DNA of 32,572 nucleotides from a virus (taxonomy: Duplodnaviria; Heunggongvirae; Uroviricota; Caudoviricetes). This document shows, in pieces, positions 1,093 to 25,535 of the stretch (within the stretch, counting starts at the first letter, position 1; every line of letters starts with the position of its first letter). Made by a program: the position numbers and the translations under genes. The stretch lies in IMG/VR virus record IMGVR_UViG_2802429232_000006. The stretch is one strand, 5' to 3'. Under the pieces are notes generated by a model, which was not told where the DNA came from, did no database searches, and was given only the letters and a program-made list of their open reading frames with translations.

Positions 1093-2106
1093 TTACTCTA
1101 CTGTGGACACTATGTGGACACTCTCGGCCTCAGTACCACCTCTTAGCGGATTAAGAGAAATGGCGTCCTGAAGGTACTCTGGCGCAAAATGAGCGTAAAC
1201 CATAGTTTGCTCAATCCGCGTGTGACCTAGTATCCGTTGTAGCGTGATAATACTTCCTCCATTAATCATGAAATGAGTGGCAAAGCTGTGCCTTAGTGCA
1301 TGTGTGGCTTGCCCCATTGGCAAATCCGGTTTTATTGCTTTCATTGTTCGTCTGAAGCGAGGGTAATCAGCATCAGGGAATAAAAAACCTCGTTTGTTAT
1401 CCGCGATCATTTTGGCAACAGCCTCTGAGATCGGGACGGTGCGTGGTTTGTTTGTTTTCGTTTTAACAAACGTGACGCGGTTATGGATGATATTTTCTGC
1501 TTTCAAACGAGCTGCTTCTCCCCAACGTGCTCCAGTACTCAGGCAAAGAATCGCAATCTTTTTGTTGTCGCCGTCAAGAGCAGCAAGCAGTAAGGCAATT
1601 TCTTCCTGCGTGAGATAGCCTGTGTCTGGTTTTTCCTCCTTAAGCCTTTTTGTCCCTCTGATAGGGTGCTCACCAAAGAATAACTCCGCTTCAATCAGGG
1701 CTGTAAACATGCCGCTAATACATGTTAAATCACGATTGATACTCGAAGGTTTAATACCCTGACTTCTTCGGGTGGCGCAGTACTGGCTGATAAGCGATTT
1801 CGTAATTTGAAATGCGCATGGGTCATTCGTTATTTTTGTGAAGATTTCAATTTTTCCAAGATTAGATTTCCCATGCTCTTCGTGTTTACCCTTTAAATCC
1901 CACCAGATCTGTGTCAGCTCCGACAGACGTCGCTTGTCTGTTGGTTTTGATAGCCATTCTTTATTGTGGTGGTTGTACAACGTGTATTTCTCGAAAGCGA
2001 CAGCTTCGCTTTTCTTATCAAACTTCCTACGGATGCGTTTTCCATTACGTCCAGTAGGGCGGATGTCCACTTCATATCGACCATCATCGAGTTTTTTGAT
2101 TGCCAT
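1093..2106 (-). CDS. int: P2-type tyrosine integrase
   Basis: 337 aa, the P2 Int length; C-terminal R...HxxR...Y catalytic region (HALRHSFATH, MVYAHF); adjacent to att core and C repressor. Confidence 0.93.
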   Translation of the reverse strand: MAIKKLDDGRYEVDIRPTGRNGKRIRRKFDKKSEAVAFEKYTLYNHHNKEWLSKPTDKRRLSELTQIWWDLKGKHEEHGKSNLGKIEIFTKITNDPCAFQITKSLISQYCATRRSQGIKPSSINRDLTCISGMFTALIEAELFFGEHPIRGTKRLKEEKPDTGYLTQEEIALLLAALDGDNKKIAILCLSTGARWGEAARLKAENIIHNRVTFVKTKTNKPRTVPISEAVAKMIADNKRGFLFPDADYPRFRRTMKAIKPDLPMGQATHALRHSFATHFMINGGSIITLQRILGHTRIEQTMVYAHFAPEYLQDAISLNPLRGGTEAESVHIVSTVE

Positions 2107-3652: not shown

Positions 3653-3877
3653 ATGCATACAGTTTCTGAAAATCAGTGCGGTAAATACGCATTACTGCTG
3701 CAACAGGCCAGAACCGAAGCACAGGCCGACGCAGCGACGCGCTTTTCTTCTCATCTTGACGCCATGATTCGCCACATCACAAAGGCGGAGTTATCCCGCG
3801 TGGAGATAGTCGAGCTGCTCAGTCAGGAGTCGGAAAAATTTCACAATATCGGATTGTCTCGCGGGGAGGTGCTTTGA
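3653..3877 (+). CDS. Hypothetical early protein (P2 orf80 position)
   Basis: ORF 3620-3877 has a TTG start; ATG at 3653 with GGAG 6 nt upstream is preferred; 74-aa product. Confidence 0.55.
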
Positions 3878-4179
3878 TGTCCTGTTCTCGTTCAGTTGTA
3901 TTACTGAATAACGCCTTAAAAATCGCCGTTATGAAAAATGGCGATTTATCTCTTATTCAACTTGGTCTTGATAAAGAAAAACGCGAAATAACTGAGTCTG
4001 TTATCGCGATTTATCAGAACGAATTAAATCTCCTGTCTGATGTGGTCAATTTACTTGTTAAACGCGCTGTATTTCACAAGCAAATCTCCTCCGTGGATGA
4101 ACTGACGAAATTAACGACAGAAATTGCCAGCTATTGCGCTGATGAATTTAAAAAACTTAACGACAAAAGGAGCTGGTAA
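3874..4179 (+). CDS. Hypothetical early protein (P2 orf81 position)
   Basis: 101-aa ORF, start overlaps the upstream stop (ATGA coupling). Confidence 0.6.
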
Positions 4180-4403
4180 TGCCGGACAACGTAGATTTTA
4201 TTCAGGAACAACAGGCTGAATTACTGGAGCGCCAGATTAACGCGGCAAGGGTAAAGCATTGCGGTGTTTCTGCGCTGGTTTGCGAAGAGTGTGACGCGCC
4301 AATACCTGCTGCCCGTCGTGCGGCTTATCCGTCAGCCACGCGTTGTGTTTCCTGCCAGTCAGTCTTTGAAGCAAAAAACAAACATTACCGGAGAACGGCA
4401 TGA
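4179..4403 (+). CDS. TraR/DksA-family C4 zinc-finger protein (P2 orf82 position)
   Basis: 74 aa with CxxC...CxxC (CEECDAPI ... CVSCQ) typical of TraR/DksA-like phage proteins. Confidence 0.7.
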   Translation: MPDNVDFIQEQQAELLERQINAARVKHCGVSALVCEECDAPIPAARRAAYPSATRCVSCQSVFEAKNKHYRRTA

Positions 4404-4675
4404 GTATTCGTATTGAAATTGGCGAACGTTATGTCGTTACCAGTGACAGCTTTCAGTTTATTCTCCACGAGAAAAAGAGAGCTGAAAGCGGTAAAAACGC
4501 CGGTCAGGAATGGCTGGCGGTGGTTGGTTATTACCCGAAATTAAGCCAGCTCGTTTCCGGCCTGATGCATCACGATATTCTTACCGGAAGCGCAAAGTCT
4601 TTTGCTGATTTAAACGCGCAGGTTGAGCAACTCAGCAAGCGTTGTTCAGAGGCTTTTAGCTCATATGGCCGTTAA
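4400..4675 (+). CDS. Hypothetical early protein (P2 orf83 position)
   Basis: 91-aa ORF, 4-nt overlap with the upstream gene. Confidence 0.6.
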   Translation: MSIRIEIGERYVVTSDSFQFILHEKKRAESGKNAGQEWLAVVGYYPKLSQLVSGLMHHDILTGSAKSFADLNAQVEQLSKRCSEAFSSYGR

Positions 4676-6785
4676 AGCCTCCGGGCGTTTTGTCCCTCCG
4701 TCAGCATTTGCCGCAGGCACCGGTAAGACGTTTACCGGTGCTTATGCATGGAACGCGCCACGCGAGGCCGTCGGGTGCGAAAGACCCCTTACACGTGACG
4801 AGATGCGTCAGGTGCAAGGTGTTTTATCCACGATTAACCGCCTGCCTTACTTTTTGCGCTCGCTGTTTACTTCACGCTATGACTACATCCGGCGCAATAA
4901 AAGCCCGGTGCACGGGTTTTATTTCCTCACATCCACTTTTCAGCGTCGTTTATGGCCGCGCATTGAGCGTGTGAATCAGCGCCATGAAATGAACACCGAC
5001 GCGTCGTTGCTGTTTCTGGCAGAGCGTGACCACTATGCGCGCCTGCCGGGAATGAATGACAAGGAGCTGAAAAAGTTTGCCGCCCGTATCTCATCGCAGC
5101 TTTTCATGATGTATGAGGAACTCAGCGATGCCTGGGTGGATGCACATGGCGAAAAAGAATCGCTGTTTACGGATGAGGCGCAGGCTCACCTCTATGGTCA
5201 TGTTGCTGGCGCTGCACGTGCTTTCAATATTTCCCCGCTTTACTGGAAAAAATACCGTAAAGGACAGATGACCACGAGGCAGGCATATTCTGCCATTGCC
5301 CGTCTGTTTAACGATGAGTGGTGGACTCATCAGCTTAAAGGCCAGCGTATGCGCTGGCATGAGGCGTTACTGATTGCTGTCGGGGAGGTCAATAAAGACC
5401 GTTCTCCTTATGCCAGTAAACATGCCATTCGTGATGTGCGTGCACGCCGCCAGGCAAATCTGGAATTTCTTAAATCGTGTGACCTCGAAAACAGGGAAAC
5501 CGGCGAGCGCATCGACCTTATCAGTAAGGTGATGGGCAGTATTTCTAATCCTGAAATTCGCCGGATGGAGCTGATGAACACCATCGCCGGTATTGAGCGT
5601 TACGCCGCCGCAGAGGGTGATGTGGGGATGTTTATCACTCTGACCGCGCCGTCAAAGTATCACCCGACACGTCAGGTCGGAAAAGGCGAAAGTAAAACCG
5701 TCCAGCTAAATCACGGCTGGAATGATGAGGCATTTAATCCAAAGGATGCGCAGCGTTATCTCTGCCGTATCTGGAGCCTGGTGCGCACGGCATTCAAAGA
5801 TAATGATTTACAGGTCTACGGTTTGCGAGTCGTCGAGCCACACCACGACGGAACGCCGCACTGGCATATGATGCTTTTTTGTAATCCACGCCAGCGTAAC
5901 CAGATTATCGAAATCATGCGTCGCTATGCGCTCAAAGAGGATGGCGACGAAAGAGGAGCCGCGCGAAACCGTTTTCAGGCAAAACATCTTAACCGGGGCG
6001 GTGCTGCGGGATATATTGCTAAATACATCTCAAAAAATATCGACGGCTATGCACTGGATGGTCAGCTCGATAACGATACCGGCAGGCCGCTGAAAGACAC
6101 TGCTGCGGCTGTAACCGCATGGGCGTCAACGTGGCGTATCCCACAATTTAAAACGGTTGGCCTGCCGACAATGGGGGCTTACCGTGAACTACGCAAACTG
6201 CCTCGCGGCGTCAGCATTGCTGATGAGTTTGACGAGCGCGTCGAGGCTGCACGCGCCGCCGCAGACAGTGGTGATTTTGCGTTGTATATCAGCGCGCAGG
6301 GTGGGGCAAATGTCCCGCGCGATTGTCAGACTGTCAGAGTCGCCCGTAGCCCGTCGGATGACGTTAACGAGTACGAGGAAGAAGTCGAGAGAGTGGTCGG
6401 CATTTACGCGCCGCATCTCGGCGCGCGTCATATTCATATCACCAGAACGACGGACTGGCGCATTGTACCGAAAGTTCCGGTCGTTGAGCCTTTGACTTTA
6501 AAAAGCGGCATCGCCGCGCCTCGGAGTCCTGTCAATAACTGTGGAAAGCTCTCCGGTGGTGATGCTTCGTTACCGGCTCCCACACCTTCTGAGCACGCCG
6601 CAGCAGTGCTTAATCTGGTTGATGACGGTGTTATCGAATGGAATGACCCGGAGGTCGTGAGGGCGCTCAGGGGCGCATTAAAACACGGGCTGAGAACGCC
6701 AAATCGTCAGCAAGGAAACGGAAGCCCGTTAAAACCACATGAAATAGCACCGTCGGGCAGATTGAACAGGTGGGAACGATTGTAA
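4665..6785 (+). CDS. A: Replication initiation protein A (rolling-circle nicking endonuclease)
   Basis: ORF track starts at 4623, but ATG at 4665 (MAVKASGRFVPP...) matches the P2 A N-terminus as I recall it; HWHMM motif resembles HUH-type initiator; phage ori expected inside the 3' part. Confidence 0.88.
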   Translation: MAVKASGRFVPPSAFAAGTGKTFTGAYAWNAPREAVGCERPLTRDEMRQVQGVLSTINRLPYFLRSLFTSRYDYIRRNKSPVHGFYFLTSTFQRRLWPRIERVNQRHEMNTDASLLFLAERDHYARLPGMNDKELKKFAARISSQLFMMYEELSDAWVDAHGEKESLFTDEAQAHLYGHVAGAARAFNISPLYWKKYRKGQMTTRQAYSAIARLFNDEWWTHQLKGQRMRWHEALLIAVGEVNKDRSPYASKHAIRDVRARRQANLEFLKSCDLENRETGERIDLISKVMGSISNPEIRRMELMNTIAGIERYAAAEGDVGMFITLTAPSKYHPTRQVGKGESKTVQLNHGWNDEAFNPKDAQRYLCRIWSLVRTAFKDNDLQVYGLRVVEPHHDGTPHWHMMLFCNPRQRNQIIEIMRRYALKEDGDERGAARNRFQAKHLNRGGAAGYIAKYISKNIDGYALDGQLDNDTGRPLKDTAAAVTAWASTWRIPQFKTVGLPTMGAYRELRKLPRGVSIADEFDERVEAARAAADSGDFALYISAQGGANVPRDCQTVRVARSPSDDVNEYEEEVERVVGIYAPHLGARHIHITRTTDWRIVPKVPVVEPLTLKSGIAAPRSPVNNCGKLSGGDASLPAPTPSEHAAAVLNLVDDGVIEWNDPEVVRALRGALKHGLRTPNRQQGNGSPLKPHEIAPSGRLNRWERL

Positions 6786-7012
6786 ATACCCCATATAAGA
6801 GTTGTTCTTGCTCAACATGGCATCTGAACGCAAAGATAAAAGCCTGGGAGGCATACAGATAGTCCTGCTGTAAGTTAGTTGGAAAAAGATTGATTTACTT
6901 TATTACAGGAAGCCTCGATAAAATAATTCTAACGTGGATAAGGATATAAATTTATTATAATGAATCTGTCAATATTATAATAAATGTTATTTTTAAAGAG
7001 ATGAAAGGTAGG

Positions 7013-7042
7013 GTTGTTGTTTGTTGGTTTTTGTGATATAAT
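7013..7042 (+). promoter_or_regulatory. Putative sigma70 promoter for the cargo cassette (extended -10)
   Basis: TTGTTG (7013-7018), 18-bp spacer, TG-n-TATAAT (7034-7042); about 40 bp upstream of the cassette start. Confidence 0.45.
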
Positions 7043-7082
7043 ATTAAATTCATGTAACTAGTAAATGCAAATGGAAAAAAGC

Positions 7083-8219
7083 ATGAGAATAAAATCACTG
7101 GAGACATATAACTCTCACAGTAAATTGAAAATTAATAAAATAGAATTCAAATCACTGACCTTATTGGTTGGTGCTTCAGGTGTAGGGAAAACACAAATAC
7201 TTCGTTCTATCAATAAAATAAAGTCTATCGCACATGGTGATTCCGTTAGTGGGTTTTGCTGGAACGTTGAGTTTAATGCTGAAGGTAATGATTATCAATG
7301 GTCTGGTGAGTTTGAGGCGCTGGAGGATTATGATGATTTTACTTATGGAATGTTTCATTTTGATGATGACGACAAGGTTGAACCAAAAATTATAAAAGAA
7401 GAAGTTAAAATCAATGGTTCAATTATTATCACCAGAAGTGGCGATGATATCGTTTATAATGACAGTAAAACAGTTAAGCTGGCTTCTACAGTTAGTATAG
7501 TTCATCACTTGCGTGAGGAAGATGATATTTCGGTTATACACAAGTCATTTTCACGAATTGTGCAAGTTGATGATGATGAAATGCATAAGGTGTTTCCTAG
7601 AAAAAATAAAGATGCTTCAGAGGATGAAGAGCTTAGCATCAATGATATCAGAGAGAAGTCATTCTCTTTGAGTGCTAAGTTGTATTTGTGTCAAGAAAAA
7701 CAACCAGTCTACTTTCATCAAATTAAAAATTCATTTGTGGAGATTTTTCCATATATTGAAGATATAAAGGTGGTTAAGGTTGATACAAGAGGGATTCCTT
7801 TCTTTGTTCATTCTGTATATGCACTCAAGGTTAAGGAAAGAGGGATTGATGAGTGGATTTCGCACAATTCAATGTCTACCGGGATGTTGAAAACATTTGT
7901 CCAACTGGCATATCTGCATCTTAGCCCGACGGGAACTGTGTTCTTAATTGATGAGTTCGAGAATGGCTTTGGTGTTAACTGTATTAATGATATAACAGAT
8001 GTGCTACTACATCATGGTAATGATGTTCAGTTTATTTTGACGAGTCATCATCCTTATATTATAAATAACATACCGCTTGATAACTGGAAAATTATTTCAA
8101 GGAAGGCCGGGGTTGTTGATAACTATTCTGCGGATTTTTTTAATTTAAAAGAATCCAATCATGAGGCGTTTACTAAATTAATAAATTTAAGCGTTTATTT
8201 TGATGGTGCGGATAGATGA
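7083..8219 (+). CDS. ABC-type / AAA_21-like ATPase, candidate defense-system component
   Basis: Longest ORF starts at 7065; ATG at 7083 (MRIKSLE...) fits the family N-terminus. Walker A GASGVGKTQ, Walker B VFLIDEFENG, H-loop-like LTSHHP, signature-like SMSTGM; acidic inserts; AT-rich codon usage unlike flanking phage genes. Confidence 0.8.
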   Translation: MRIKSLETYNSHSKLKINKIEFKSLTLLVGASGVGKTQILRSINKIKSIAHGDSVSGFCWNVEFNAEGNDYQWSGEFEALEDYDDFTYGMFHFDDDDKVEPKIIKEEVKINGSIIITRSGDDIVYNDSKTVKLASTVSIVHHLREEDDISVIHKSFSRIVQVDDDEMHKVFPRKNKDASEDEELSINDIREKSFSLSAKLYLCQEKQPVYFHQIKNSFVEIFPYIEDIKVVKVDTRGIPFFVHSVYALKVKERGIDEWISHNSMSTGMLKTFVQLAYLHLSPTGTVFLIDEFENGFGVNCINDITDVLLHHGNDVQFILTSHHPYIINNIPLDNWKIISRKAGVVDNYSADFFNLKESNHEAFTKLINLSVYFDGADR

Positions 8220-8926
8220 ATTTGTATATTTTGGCTGAGGGGCGACAAACAGAGCGAAGAATCTATCCGGCATGGATAGGCGTTCTATCTCCATCTTTAA
8301 AGCAAGTTGAGTGTTTGTCTGCAATAGATAAAAACAACTATTATTTTATAAGCGGCGAGGGATATCCTCGTATGATTGATGTGACGCTTATTAATGCAAT
8401 TAAAGATATACATGATAACCCTAAATTTACCGATTTTTGGGTTGTGCTAGACTCTGAAGGAGAGGATGTTGAGGCAAGGAGAGAGCTTGTTAGAAATAAG
8501 ATTGATTCTTCTGGTATAGATATATCTCATTGTGAAGTAAATATAATAGTTCAAAATCCGTGCATAGAAACGTGGGGGCTAGGGAATCGAGTCATTATTT
8601 CGCCAAATAAGTTGACTGAATCTTTTTTGGACTATTATGAGCACTATGATGTGTCATCCAATGATCCAGAGGGTATGGGAAAGCCTCTTGCCTATGACGG
8701 ATCAATTGCTAAGTATCACGAGAGTTATTTAAAAAGTATGCTTGCTTTAAGAAATGCAATGTATACGAAAAAAAATCCAGCAGCATTGATGGAGCCTTCA
8801 TATTTGCAACAGCTTATATCCAGAGCTTATGCTGAGGATGGACATATACCAAGCTTTAGGCATTTTCATACGTTGGCTACTCAGCTTGAGGCTAAAGCGA
8901 AAATGTTGGAAAGCCGTGTAGCGTAG
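8216..8926 (+). CDS. Partner protein with TOPRIM/DUF4276-like acidic motifs, candidate effector
   Basis: 236 aa; ATGA overlap with ATPase stop; N-terminal LYILAEG..E, later VVLDSEGED and NPCIETW motifs. Confidence 0.75.
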   Translation: MNLYILAEGRQTERRIYPAWIGVLSPSLKQVECLSAIDKNNYYFISGEGYPRMIDVTLINAIKDIHDNPKFTDFWVVLDSEGEDVEARRELVRNKIDSSGIDISHCEVNIIVQNPCIETWGLGNRVIISPNKLTESFLDYYEHYDVSSNDPEGMGKPLAYDGSIAKYHESYLKSMLALRNAMYTKKNPAALMEPSYLQQLISRAYAEDGHIPSFRHFHTLATQLEAKAKMLESRVA

Positions 8927-8930
8927 AATT

Positions 8931-8977
8931 GACGACATCATGCTTTTTTGTGCATGATGTCGCATTTGTTTTTTTAT
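8931..8977 (+). terminator. Rho-independent terminator after the cargo cassette
   Basis: Stem GACATCATGC / GCATGATGTC (8934-8943 / 8952-8961), 8-nt loop, then a T-rich tract (8966-8976). Confidence 0.7.
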
Positions 8978-9060
8978 GTCCTCTCTAACCAATATTGCTC
9001 TGTTCGTTAGTATTTGTAGCGGGCATGCACCTGCATTAAAACCGACCCATGAAGTGGGCG

Positions 9061-9079
9061 GGCGAGGCGGGGAAAGCAC
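9061..9079. other. cos: cos site (19-nt cohesive end sequence)
   Basis: GGCGAGGCGGGGAAAGCAC matches the P2 cohesive end as I recall it; lies between the accessory region and Q as in P2. Confidence 0.7.
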
Positions 9080-9221
9080 TGCGCGCTGGCGGTGGTGCTG
9101 ATTTTATTTTTTCAGCGTCTGAGCGCGTCGTGATGGCGTTTAGATTGTGCGCCGGGGTGTTGGTGTGTCTGCGGGATGTTTTGTGCGGTGGTGAGCGTGT
9201 GAGGGCGTGATGACGGGGGGT

Positions 9222-9248: not shown

Positions 9249-10283
9249 TCAGCCGTTGTCAGTGTCCAGTGAGTAGTTTTTAAAGCGGATGACCTCCTGG
9301 CCGAGCCAGCCGTTTATTTCCCGAATCCTGTCCTGTAGCGGGATAAGCTCATTGCGGACAAAGACCTTTGCCACTTTCTCAATATCACCCAGCGACCCGA
9401 CGTTCTCCGGCTTGCCGCCCATCAACTGAAAGGGGATGCGGTGCGCGTCCAGCAGGTCTGCGGCACTGGCTTTTTTGATATTAAAAAAATCGTCCTTCGT
9501 TGCCACTTCACTGAGCGGGATAATTTTAATGCCGTCAGCTTTCCCCTGTGGGGCATAGAGAAACAGATTTTTAAAGTTGTTGCGGCCTTTCGATTTAACC
9601 ATGTTTTCGCGGAGCATTTCGATATCGTTGCGATCCTGCACGGCATCGGTGACGTACATGATGTATCCGGCATGTGCGCCGTTTTCGTAATACTTTCGGC
9701 GGAACAGCGTGGCCGACTCATTCAGCCAGGCAGAGTTAAGGGCGCTGAGGTATTCCGGCAGGCCGTACAGCTCCTGATTAATATCCGGCTCCAGCAGGTG
9801 AAACACGGAGCCGGGCGTGAAAGGTGTCGGCTCGTTGAAGGAAGGCACCCACCAGTAAACATCCTCTTCCACGCCACGGCGGGTATATTTTGCCGGTGAG
9901 GTTTCCAGTCTGATGACCTTACCGGTGGTGCTGTAACGCTTTTCCAGAAACGCATTACCGAACACCAGAAAATCCAGCACAAAGCGGCTGAAATCCTGCT
10001 GGGACAGCCACGGATGCGGGATAAATGTCGAGGCCAGAATATTACGTTTGACGTAAATCGGGGAGCTGTGATGCACGGCAGCACGCAGGCTTTTTGCCAG
10101 ACCGGTAAAGCTGACCGGCGGCTCATACCATCTGCCGTTACTGATGCACTCGACGTAATCCAGAATGTCACGGCGGTCGAGTACCGGCACCGGCTCACCA
10201 AAGGTGAATGCCTCCATTTTCGGGGCGCTGGCGGTGATTGTTTTTGCCGCAGGTTGCGGTGTTTTCCCTTTTTTCTTGCTCAT
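9249..10283 (-). CDS. Q: Portal (capsid portal) protein Q
   Basis: 344 aa, the P2 Q length; start overlaps the P stop. Confidence 0.93.
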   Translation of the reverse strand: MSKKKGKTPQPAAKTITASAPKMEAFTFGEPVPVLDRRDILDYVECISNGRWYEPPVSFTGLAKSLRAAVHHSSPIYVKRNILASTFIPHPWLSQQDFSRFVLDFLVFGNAFLEKRYSTTGKVIRLETSPAKYTRRGVEEDVYWWVPSFNEPTPFTPGSVFHLLEPDINQELYGLPEYLSALNSAWLNESATLFRRKYYENGAHAGYIMYVTDAVQDRNDIEMLRENMVKSKGRNNFKNLFLYAPQGKADGIKIIPLSEVATKDDFFNIKKASAADLLDAHRIPFQLMGGKPENVGSLGDIEKVAKVFVRNELIPLQDRIREINGWLGQEVIRFKNYSLDTDNG

Positions 10284-24127: not shown

Positions 24128-24455
24128 ATCGTATTAGCTCTGGTGTGAGATTACTCATCTATGGCACAGAGTAAAACCTAATCTGACTGTCCGCTCTGTG
24201 CTAGGAGCGGACGTGATGCATATCTGTCACCAAATTTAATGTGCCACTACAAACAGAGTATATAGTTGAATATTATAGTGCACCCCGGCCTCATGAATAT
24301 AACGGTGGATTACCGCCGAACGAGTCGGAAAATAGATACTGGAAAAACTCTAAAATCGAGGCCAGTTTTTGTTGTTCTCTACAATAATAATCGGATTTTC
24401 CCATGACAAGTTTAATAGTATTTAGGTGCCTGAAGTGAAGTTGAAGAAGCTATTG

Positions 24456-25535
24456 ATGAAAGTTGTGAAAGTGGTAAAGGAGCAGGTTCTAAGTACCGTT
24501 ATTTCGGGAATAATAGGCATAGCGGCTACAGTAGGGCTTTTCCATTTCACTTCACAGCCAATACGATCTGCTGATGTTCGCGAAAAATTAGTTGAAATGG
24601 CTCGGGAGTGCATCCAGCAGCAGCTTGCCACACATTTGGACTCAGTGGCGTTTGACTCAGTGGCTAGCGAGTCTCTCGATCTAAGCACCTCAAACTCCGT
24701 TGTAGTCTACGGAAGAGCTGTGAGCACAAATGGTGCCCTTAGCCGTTTCCTGATGGTCTTCGAGCCCTCTGGACAGAGTTTGATAGATAAGGTGGTTGGC
24801 AGACCTGGATTCTACGATATTGGGTATTGGGCAATCATCCCAGACGCAGGGGACGACGAGGTTGTGGCTTCTTCAGTAAACATTGAAGACCTCGACAAAG
24901 ATGGTAACAAGGACATACTAGTCCGCTTAAAGTCAACTTACGCGGATGGTGTATCCAAAGGGCTTCTTATACTTAAAAAGGATATCCATGATGTATGGCA
25001 TTTGATGGGGCTTCCATCAATGACAGAGATCATGCATTCCATTGCTGCAGGTCAGCCTCCCCAGCCGGAAGGTCTTCACCTTCCACTTCCGGCAATACAA
25101 TGGTTTAGTAATGACGAAAAACTCAAACCAAAGTCTGATATCAAACAATATCTTAATTGGGAAATTGACGAAGATAACTTGCAGGTCGCTGATTCCACTG
25201 GAAATCATTCTTTTTGGATGTTCAGAAACGGCACCAAGATAAAAATGTTCGAGAATGGACAAGCCGGCTACAAGCACTTTGGTGTACTGGTCAACATCAA
25301 TGATGAAGAGGCGATACAGGGAAGGCATCATCTCATGGTCAGCTTTTTCAAGATAGAGAATAATAGTTTGGTTCCTGATCCGAATTGGAACTGGGCCTAT
25401 CCCATGTTCTCTATCGGATTAGAGGATAGCCAAGAAGTTGAATTGAGTGACATGCAGGAAGCGGGCTTACAAGCTCATGTTTCTGGTAGCTCCGTTTTCG
25501 GCCTGACAGAGTTTGGGAAAATGGACTCAGATTAA
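24456..25535 (+). CDS. Hypothetical membrane-anchored protein, cargo at the Z/fun hotspot
   Basis: ATG at 24456 (359 aa) preferred; longest ORF starts at GTG 24426 (369 aa). Single N-terminal TM helix (VLSTVISGIIGIAATVGLFHF), then soluble domain with no recognisable catalytic motif; AT-rich relative to flanks. Confidence 0.7.
   Translation: MKVVKVVKEQVLSTVISGIIGIAATVGLFHFTSQPIRSADVREKLVEMARECIQQQLATHLDSVAFDSVASESLDLSTSNSVVVYGRAVSTNGALSRFLMVFEPSGQSLIDKVVGRPGFYDIGYWAIIPDAGDDEVVASSVNIEDLDKDGNKDILVRLKSTYADGVSKGLLILKKDIHDVWHLMGLPSMTEIMHSIAAGQPPQPEGLHLPLPAIQWFSNDEKLKPKSDIKQYLNWEIDEDNLQVADSTGNHSFWMFRNGTKIKMFENGQAGYKHFGVLVNINDEEAIQGRHHLMVSFFKIENNSLVPDPNWNWAYPMFSIGLEDSQEVELSDMQEAGLQAHVSGSSVFGLTEFGKMDSD

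Follow-up and report, generated by a model that had tools for sequence, protein, structure and literature searches.

An ABC ATPase gene coupled to a TOPRIM-fold protein gene in the tin/old hotspot of a P2-like prophage: a candidate anti-phage module of the AbiL/RloAB/HEC-01 kind

The stretch of DNA analysed here over its whole length of 32,572 nucleotides (the window; IMG/VR record IMGVR_UViG_2802429232_000006) is a complete P2-like prophage, with an integrase gene, an early operon, the replication gene gpA, the cohesive-end site cos, portal and terminase genes, and late genes. Between gpA and cos it carries a cassette of two genes, A and B, the first encoding an ABC-type ATPase and the second a TOPRIM-fold putative metal-dependent nuclease (Table 1). 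An earlier note, made from the sequence alone, had described this cassette as a pair of open reading frames (ORFs) coupled through an ATGA overlap, of foreign composition, furnished with its own promoter and terminator and lying exactly where P2 carries tin and old, and had proposed that it serves in defence against phages. The coupled pair and its overlap are present, as are all the motifs quoted for both proteins, and the position holds too: gpA ends at 6785, and the cos sequence is identical to cosR of P2. In P2 itself the gpA-cos slot is filled by orf91, tin and old, the last two on the opposite strand, and this slot is a published defence hotspot (PMC9122126). The foreign composition is equally plain, since the guanine-plus-cytosine (GC) content is 33-38% over 7001-9000 vs 52-58% in both flanks.

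Hundreds of homologues exist for each of the two proteins, which establishes both ORFs as real genes. The longest ORF of A runs from 7065 to 8219 on the plus strand (384 amino acids, aa), and the Prokaryotic Genome Annotation Pipeline (PGAP) places the start at 7071 in a sister genome; nearly all A homologues, however, are about 378 aa long and begin with MRIK or MKI, so that the true start is most likely the ATG at 7083. Upstream of the cassette lies a putative sigma-70 promoter with a perfect extended -10 element, TGaTATAAT, and a -35 element that fits at only three of six positions, and it is because of the latter that a consensus promoter scan of this region returned no convincing site. 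In prophages of Klebsiella and Enterobacter the string TGTGnTATAAT is conserved ahead of the cassette (the Pantoea upstream region gave no useful alignment). Together with the hairpin and T-run that directly follow the B stop codon, the -10 element bears out what the earlier note had said of the transcription signals. The interval between gpA and the cassette yielded no terminator-like site, so that read-through from the early operon may also be possible during lytic growth.

Protein A is an ABC ATPase, as had been claimed. It matches Pfam AAA_21 from end to end with 57 bits, against a cut-off of 27, and it possesses the full set of elements by which such enzymes are recognised, namely a Walker A motif, an ABC signature, a Walker B motif with D-loop, and an H-loop, the four motifs being at least 97% conserved across 73 sequences. 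Its fold is of the Rad50/SMC type, modelled with short helices only and no long coiled coil, and the nearest proteins by fold are the defence ATPases PtuA and AriA, which are nearer than the ATPase domains of Old or GajA. Among the PADLOC models, A is matched by AbiLi (8.3e-19), AriA (1e-14) and HEC-01A (3.7e-14), and more weakly by PtuA, mad3 and NsnB, while a search of the PDB with a profile of 35 A homologues returned AriA first (9e-6), followed by retron and Septu PtuA. Two acidic inserts, at residues 81-100 and 161-185, show the lowest conservation and the most gaps of the whole protein and coincide with low-confidence loops of the model; they are lineage-specific surface loops and, by inference, plausible determinants of specificity.

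Might the pair, then, be a PARIS (AriA/AriB) system that has diverged? Among solved structures AriA comes nearest to A by sequence, its PADLOC model matches A, and PARIS shares the layout of two genes for an ATPase and a TOPRIM protein. The published detection rule, on the other hand, demands an AriB carrying DUF4435 (PF14491, at least 27 bits) beside an AAA_15 or AAA_21 ATPase (Rousset 2022), and here only the ATPase half is found: DUF4435, the defining domain of AriB, has no match in B or in any of 33 B relatives. Moreover, the best 150 representatives of the B family are all 160-254 aa long and not one is fused to an ATPase, whereas PARIS includes fusions. A PARIS identity is accordingly the least probable of the explanations weighed here, and scarcely credible.

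The AlphaFold model of protein B is of high confidence, with a predicted local distance difference test score (pLDDT) of 95.2 and a predicted template modelling score of 0.91, and consists of an alternating strand/helix TOPRIM core followed by a helical domain. The attributes that define TOPRIM membership are all found, that is, a four-stranded parallel beta-alpha core with a glutamate after the first strand and a DxD-type acidic pair after the third. The motifs LYILAEG, VVLDSEGED and NPCIETW can be read from the sequence, and the acidic residues singled out in the earlier note prove to be conserved, E8 after strand 1, D79-x-[D/E]81 after strand 3 and E118 after strand 4 all being invariant or nearly so. 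The helical domain holds a second invariant cluster (P151, E152, H168, Y171, Y183, K185 and R203). When the 33 relatives of B were scanned, 30 touched AbiLii, 20 touched RloB (E < 0.01), seven DUF4276, two DUF3226 and two OLD-like_TOPRIM, and NCBIfam gave no match for B or for any of them. Aligned by hhalign with a bona fide RloB of 172 aa from another P2-hotspot system, the B profile reached 55% probability over residues 4-130, with the three acidic motifs in register; the conserved C-terminal helical domain of B, some 100 aa long, is absent from that RloB. Judged by these profile comparisons, B is a TOPRIM-fold protein of the RloB/DUF4276/DUF3226 neighbourhood and a remote relative of RloB that stays below the curated threshold.

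How large is the family to which B belongs, and how faithfully does A accompany it? An exhaustive profile search of 1.84 billion representatives yielded 806 clusters, 644 of them below 1e-10, so the family has sharp limits and does not blend into the wider RloB or DUF4276 groups. A word-indexed search had suggested a tiny family of 47 clusters, which turned out to be an artefact of its sensitivity. Relatives of B occur in 395 of about 185,000 bacterial species genomes (one genome per species), and the 80 loci listed include many from cyanobacteria, together with Bacteroidota, Planctomycetota and Desulfobacterota. In all 80 of these loci, spread over many phyla, an A-family ATPase gene lies immediately upstream of B on the same strand; it is full length in 72 and cut by contig ends or split in the others. 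The junction is a 4-nucleotide overlap in 47 loci, a 1-nucleotide overlap in 18 (65 with a stop/start overlap altogether) and a gap of 1-15 nucleotides in the remaining 15. Pairwise identities of A and of B are correlated at r = 0.87, a value that none of 999 permutations attained, and this co-divergence, combined with the strict adjacency, indicates that A and B are inherited as one unit. Among 126 genes flanking the pair at 32 diverse loci, scanned against Pfam and PADLOC, no conserved third gene emerged; the module is autonomous. Filamentous cyanobacteria (Nostoc, Microcoleus, Calothrix and Tolypothrix) are frequent among the 80 loci. A 2026 review mentions an unnamed two-gene system of ATPase and TOPRIM protein in Nostoc (Makarova 2011), and the pair could be this still-unnamed system.

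The distribution also bears on a reading that would take the pair out of defence altogether, as an accessory of phage or host DNA metabolism with a role in replication or repair. RecF and RecR are one such pair of ABC ATPase and TOPRIM protein, the SbcCD type would be another model, and many chromosomal copies of the A/B pair do lie among housekeeping genes. Yet the distribution is patchy, as reflected both in the species count just given and in the presence of the cassette in only one of 5,426 complete E. coli genomes; the composition is foreign, the contexts are mobile, the cassette replaces tin and old in a non-essential hotspot, and A lacks a long coiled coil. A role of this kind is therefore very improbable. 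The cassette was found in no deposited phage genome, and relatives of B appear in just seven of 2.9 million viral contigs, six of them on contigs of 20-33 kb.

Mobility is evident from the company that the pair keeps. Its nearest homologues occupy the same gpA-portal slot in P2/186-like prophages of Klebsiella (75% identity for B), Enterobacter (81%) and Pantoea (51%), and seven plasmid records carry relatives of B. In the two small plasmids examined, Acinetobacter pAV2 and a plasmid of Proteus terrae, an ATPase gene stands directly upstream of B, and in pAV2 the pair adjoins a RelE/ParE toxin-antitoxin pair. These plasmid settings invite the view that the pair works chiefly as a toxin-antitoxin or addiction module, in which B would be a toxic nuclease and A its neutraliser, stabilising a prophage or plasmid with little or no anti-phage role. 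In the same direction point its occurrence as an isolated two-gene islet among housekeeping genes, the behaviour of AAA + TOPRIM_OLD pairs, which have been validated as toxin-antitoxin pairs (PMC10440598), and the failure of HEC-01 to give defence. The two roles do not exclude each other, however, PARIS being both toxin-antitoxin-like and defensive; an ATPase that is costly, has its catalytic motifs fully conserved and varies in its surface loops is more in keeping with a sensor than with a passive antitoxin; and the hotspot that the pair uses repeatedly holds cargo which, where tested, is overwhelmingly anti-phage. Addiction as the main function hence appears unlikely, even if it is the strongest of the non-defensive explanations.

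Some details of these mobile copies are recorded for their own sake. On the 10-kb Proteus terrae plasmid (locus L014, 3803-5669) the ATPase partner is annotated as two overlapping coding sequences, 'ABC transporter ATP-binding protein' and 'AAA family ATPase', a sign that this copy may be frameshifted, and the same record has two matching places for B. In Xenorhabdus khoisanae the A/B pair is preceded, some 1.5 kb upstream, by a gene for an RNA 2'-phosphotransferase (Tpt1/KptA, Pfam E = 2e-47; locus L016, 3838-4380); such an RNA-repair-type enzyme may stand near a putative tRNase by chance or because the two are functionally linked.

The novelty that the earlier note had implied does not survive comparison with the catalogue of Rousset et al. 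2022 (Cell Host Microbe), in whose Table S5B the pair is already listed as system #127, 'SMC_N/AAA_15/AAA_21 | RloB', with 21 occurrences in E. coli P2 hotspots. Protein 1 of that entry is identical to A read from M7, and protein 2 equals B save for one residue (N for S near the C-terminus), so that, by sequence, the two are the same system. The entry carries Pfam labels only, and its notes column is empty. A separate and unrelated pair labelled 'AAA_15/AAA_21/SMC_N | RloB' is listed in the same table as hotspot system #90 (399 and 172 aa, 37 occurrences, other E. coli); it has the TOPRIM and P-loop motifs alone in common with the pair studied here. Since both occupy the P2 hotspot, the architecture has been recruited there at least two times, or three if Old is counted.

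The domain identities, the intact catalytic motifs, the strict pairing, the co-divergence, the mobility and the repeated occupancy of the hotspot in several enterobacterial genera are all observed. What might such a pair do? It is a self-contained piece of hotspot cargo of the AbiL/RloAB/HEC-01 kind, made up of an ABC ATPase and a stand-alone TOPRIM-fold putative nuclease; by analogy with better-known modules, it is probably a system in which A would restrain B and infection would be aborted. Three precedents lead to the proposal that A would both restrain B and sense infection while B would cut tRNA or DNA: AriA keeps the tRNase AriB sequestered until its release is set off by a phage protein (PMC11464382; PMC13064643), P2 Old has been reported as a tRNase opened by destabilisation of its oligomer (bioRxiv 10.64898/2026.07.10.737580), and AAA + TOPRIM_OLD pairs behave as toxin and antitoxin. 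In the lysogen, the pair would be expressed from its own promoter, as the examples of PARIS and P2 Old suggest, and A would oligomerise and keep B inactive, thus acting as sensor and antitoxin at once. A phage-derived trigger, possibly read by the variable acidic inserts of A, would then bring about the ATP-dependent release or activation of B, whose putative two-metal TOPRIM site (E8, D79/E81 and E118) would cut nucleic acid. The substrate would most likely be tRNA, as for AriB and Old, and less likely DNA, as for GajA, and the predicted outcome would be translation arrest and an aborted infection.

Several observations weigh against this defensive reading. Profile searches and fold comparison, which were among the checks proposed in the earlier note, placed A securely, above the AAA_21 cut-off and nearest to PtuA and AriA, but B only partly: it scores 19.3 bits against Pfam RloB (E = 1.4e-3), below the cut-off of 31.5 and over residues 59-122 only, and 24.5 bits against PADLOC AbiLii (8.5e-6), where just 32 of 170 profile positions are covered. 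All its matches to AbiLii, RloB and DUF4276 thus remain under curated or coverage thresholds, and neither Foldseek nor a sequence-profile search found anything for B in the PDB beyond chance-level matches. The 126 flanking genes gave no clear defence-island signal outside prophages, for they are mostly housekeeping genes (MnmG, AlaRS) with occasional defence genes. When assayed, HEC-01, the PADLOC candidate nearest in architecture, conferred no protection from any phage tried (Payne et al., bioRxiv 2024). Furthermore, no 'RloB' entry, system #127 included, appears in the table of tested systems of Rousset 2022; no experimental work on the A/B family was found in the literature searched, nor any mention there of the accession WP_029396084.

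The same profile scores that weaken the defensive reading touch on a narrower question, left open in the earlier note, of whether the pair belongs to AbiL, to PARIS or to a variant of its own. The pair might simply be the orthologue of lactococcal AbiL (AbiLi/AbiLii): AbiLi and AbiLii are the best PADLOC matches of A and B, nearly all scanned relatives of B touch the AbiLii model, and the label given to B in Rousset 2022, RloB, denotes the Pfam family (PF13707) that contains AbiLii. These matches are partial, though, AbiLi covering only profile positions 72-269 of 326 and AbiLii the short segment mentioned above, with RloB below its cut-off; B also has a bounded family of its own and a helical C-terminal domain that the bona fide RloB does not possess. 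Orthology is consequently improbable. With PARIS set aside by the missing DUF4435 and AbiL/RloB reached only below curated thresholds, what stood of the earlier alternatives was a sharply bounded family in its own right. It is even possible, albeit doubtful at present, that the pair represents a distinct and widespread defence system for which no Pfam, NCBIfam or PADLOC model exists at threshold, having its own trigger logic, for example acidic loops that read a phage protein, and its own nuclease target.

If active, the cassette would merit a name of its own beside PARIS and AbiL, and it would add one more branch to the abortive-infection group built on ABC ATPases and TOPRIM proteins (Old, Gabija, PARIS, AbiL), one with a compact sensor ATPase and a well-defined effector of 236 aa. 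Comparison with PARIS and Old would tell whether tRNA cleavage, and the logic by which a sensor sequesters a nuclease, extend to the whole group. As it comes from a coliphage hotspot and has its native promoter, the cassette is easily testable in E. coli. The practical gain is modest, given that the kind is known, that the pair is catalogued and that nothing surprising came to light.

The limits of the insert follow from comparison with P2. The gpA protein of the window shares 97% identity with P2 gpA across residues 1-706 and ends there, 55 codons short of the P2 protein, from which it appears that the left recombination junction of the hotspot lies inside the 3' end of an essential replication gene; the early stop also explains the 'missing C-terminus' flag that PGAP gave in the single near-identical E. 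coli genome, NZ_AP045766, where the same gpA gene is recorded as a pseudogene. On the right, the sequence again resembles that of other P2-like phages and prophages from about 9009-9027 onwards, and the two limits delineate the variable segment listed in Table 1.

Table 1. Positions of the cassette, its motifs and signals, and the surrounding prophage landmarks in the window.
Feature	Position	Strand	Remarks
Integrase gene	1093-2106	-	
P2 gpA homologue	4665-6785	+	
Low-GC cargo segment filling the gpA-cos hotspot	6786-9010	+	About 2.2 kb; delimited by GC drop, gpA end and resumption of similarity
Putative sigma-70 promoter	7014-7042	+	Weak -35 TTGTTG, 7014-7019; extended -10 TGaTATAAT, 7034-7042; read from sequence, function inferred
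Gene A, ABC-type (Rad50/SMC-like, Pfam AAA_21) ATPase, 378 aa	7083-8219	+	Alternative upstream starts 7065 and 7071
Walker A of A, GASGVGKT	7170-7193	+	Read from sequence
Variable acidic loop 1 of A, residues 81-100, DYDDFTYGMFHFDDDDKVE	7323-7382	+	Conservation 0.18-0.31, gap-rich; pLDDT <50 at residues 90-94
Variable acidic loop 2 of A, residues 161-185, QVDDDE...ASEDEE	7563-7637	+	Conservation 0.24-0.32; pLDDT <50 at residues 170-172
ABC signature of A, SMSTGM	7869-7886	+	Read from sequence
Walker B of A, VFLIDE	7938-7955	+	Read from sequence
H-loop of A, TSHH	8040-8051	+	Read from sequence
ATGA stop/start overlap of A and B	8216-8219	+	Translational coupling
Gene B, TOPRIM-fold putative metal-dependent nuclease with C-terminal helical domain, 236 aa	8216-8926	+	
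Intrinsic terminator-like hairpin, 11-bp stem, then T-run	8933-8972	+	Hairpin search and sequence; directly after B stop
P2 cos, 19-nucleotide cohesive-end sequence	9061-9079	+	Exact match to annotated cosR of P2 (NC_001895); hotspot landmark, outside cassette
Portal gene	9249-10283	-	

Other parts of the prophage deserve brief mention. The sister RefSeq genome lists a 'hypothetical protein' for a 53-aa ORF at 9049-9210 (+) that spans cos; this ORF, which overlaps the cohesive-end site, probably does not represent a real gene. Upstream of gpA, the early operon contains two DUF5405 paralogues, at 3874-4179 and 4400-4675 (+), and the early region of the sister E. coli prophage has a PAPS-reductase-domain gene that the window does not, which together indicate that the early region is mosaic too. 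The second P2 hotspot, at the Z/fun position between the tail-fibre assembly gene G and the sheath gene FI, holds a lone ORF of 369 aa at 24426-25535 (+), with a GC content of 41-47% and a hydrophobic N-terminal segment; it has no match in Pfam or PADLOC and is a candidate for further cargo.

Where does the pair stand among known systems? The literature assembles a group of defence modules that combine an ABC ATPase with a TOPRIM protein, comprising Old, Gabija, some retron systems, PARIS, AbiL, MADS3-4, Menshen variants and the candidate HEC-01, and within it the A/B pair forms a subfamily of its own, of the AbiL/RloAB/HEC-01 kind and more distantly related to PARIS and Old. Other assignments did not hold. 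In OLD classes 1-3 the ATPase and TOPRIM parts are fused, with a UvrD-like helicase adjacent in class 2 and a retron reverse transcriptase in class 3, whereas A and B are separate genes, and neither a helicase nor a reverse transcriptase gene neighbours them in the window. MADS is a methylation-associated multi-gene locus with an equivalog-level MAD3 ATPase and the DUF4276 protein MAD4, whereas the cassette has two genes; the NCBIfam MAD3 model gave 21.4 bits against a cut-off of 420, and the mad4 model matched one of the 33 relatives. As for HEC-01, which has the same two-gene architecture and whose HEC-01A model matches A over almost its full length, B of the window matches no HEC-01B model (six of the 33 relatives do so, weakly), and that candidate is defined by its embedding in Hma systems (Payne et al., bioRxiv 2024). 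DUF3226 (PH0156, PDB 2p62) and DUF4276 (MAD4 of MADS) are also counted among the closest known relations.

P2 Old, a class 1 OLD nuclease, invites comparison because it sits in the same hotspot in P2, and its TOPRIM glutamate motif, LLVEGK-TE, resembles ILAEGRQTE of B. It is, however, a single chain of 586 aa encoded on the opposite strand, and its sequence similarity to A and B is essentially limited to two short motifs. The description of the pair as a split Old, offered in the earlier note, can accordingly be kept as an architectural analogy and not as homology, for hhalign of the two profiles with P2 Old aligned just 11 and 45 columns, around the TOPRIM glutamate motif and the Walker B region. 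The pair differs from PARIS in size as well as in its lack of fusions and of a long coiled coil, noted above, A being shorter than AriA (378 vs about 464 aa). The nearest named family is AbiL/RloB, albeit below thresholds only. Both AbiL of Lactococcus lactis (AbiLi and AbiLii) and RloA/RloB of Campylobacter likewise consist of two genes, with an ABC ATPase upstream of a small TOPRIM-like protein of the RloB family; the comparison with AbiL was made at the level of the PADLOC models, and A and B are adjacent genes. Unlike these systems, the A/B pair has in B a separately bounded family with an additional conserved helical domain at its C-terminus, and its host range is different, extending over Gram-negative prophages, cyanobacteria and Bacteroidota.

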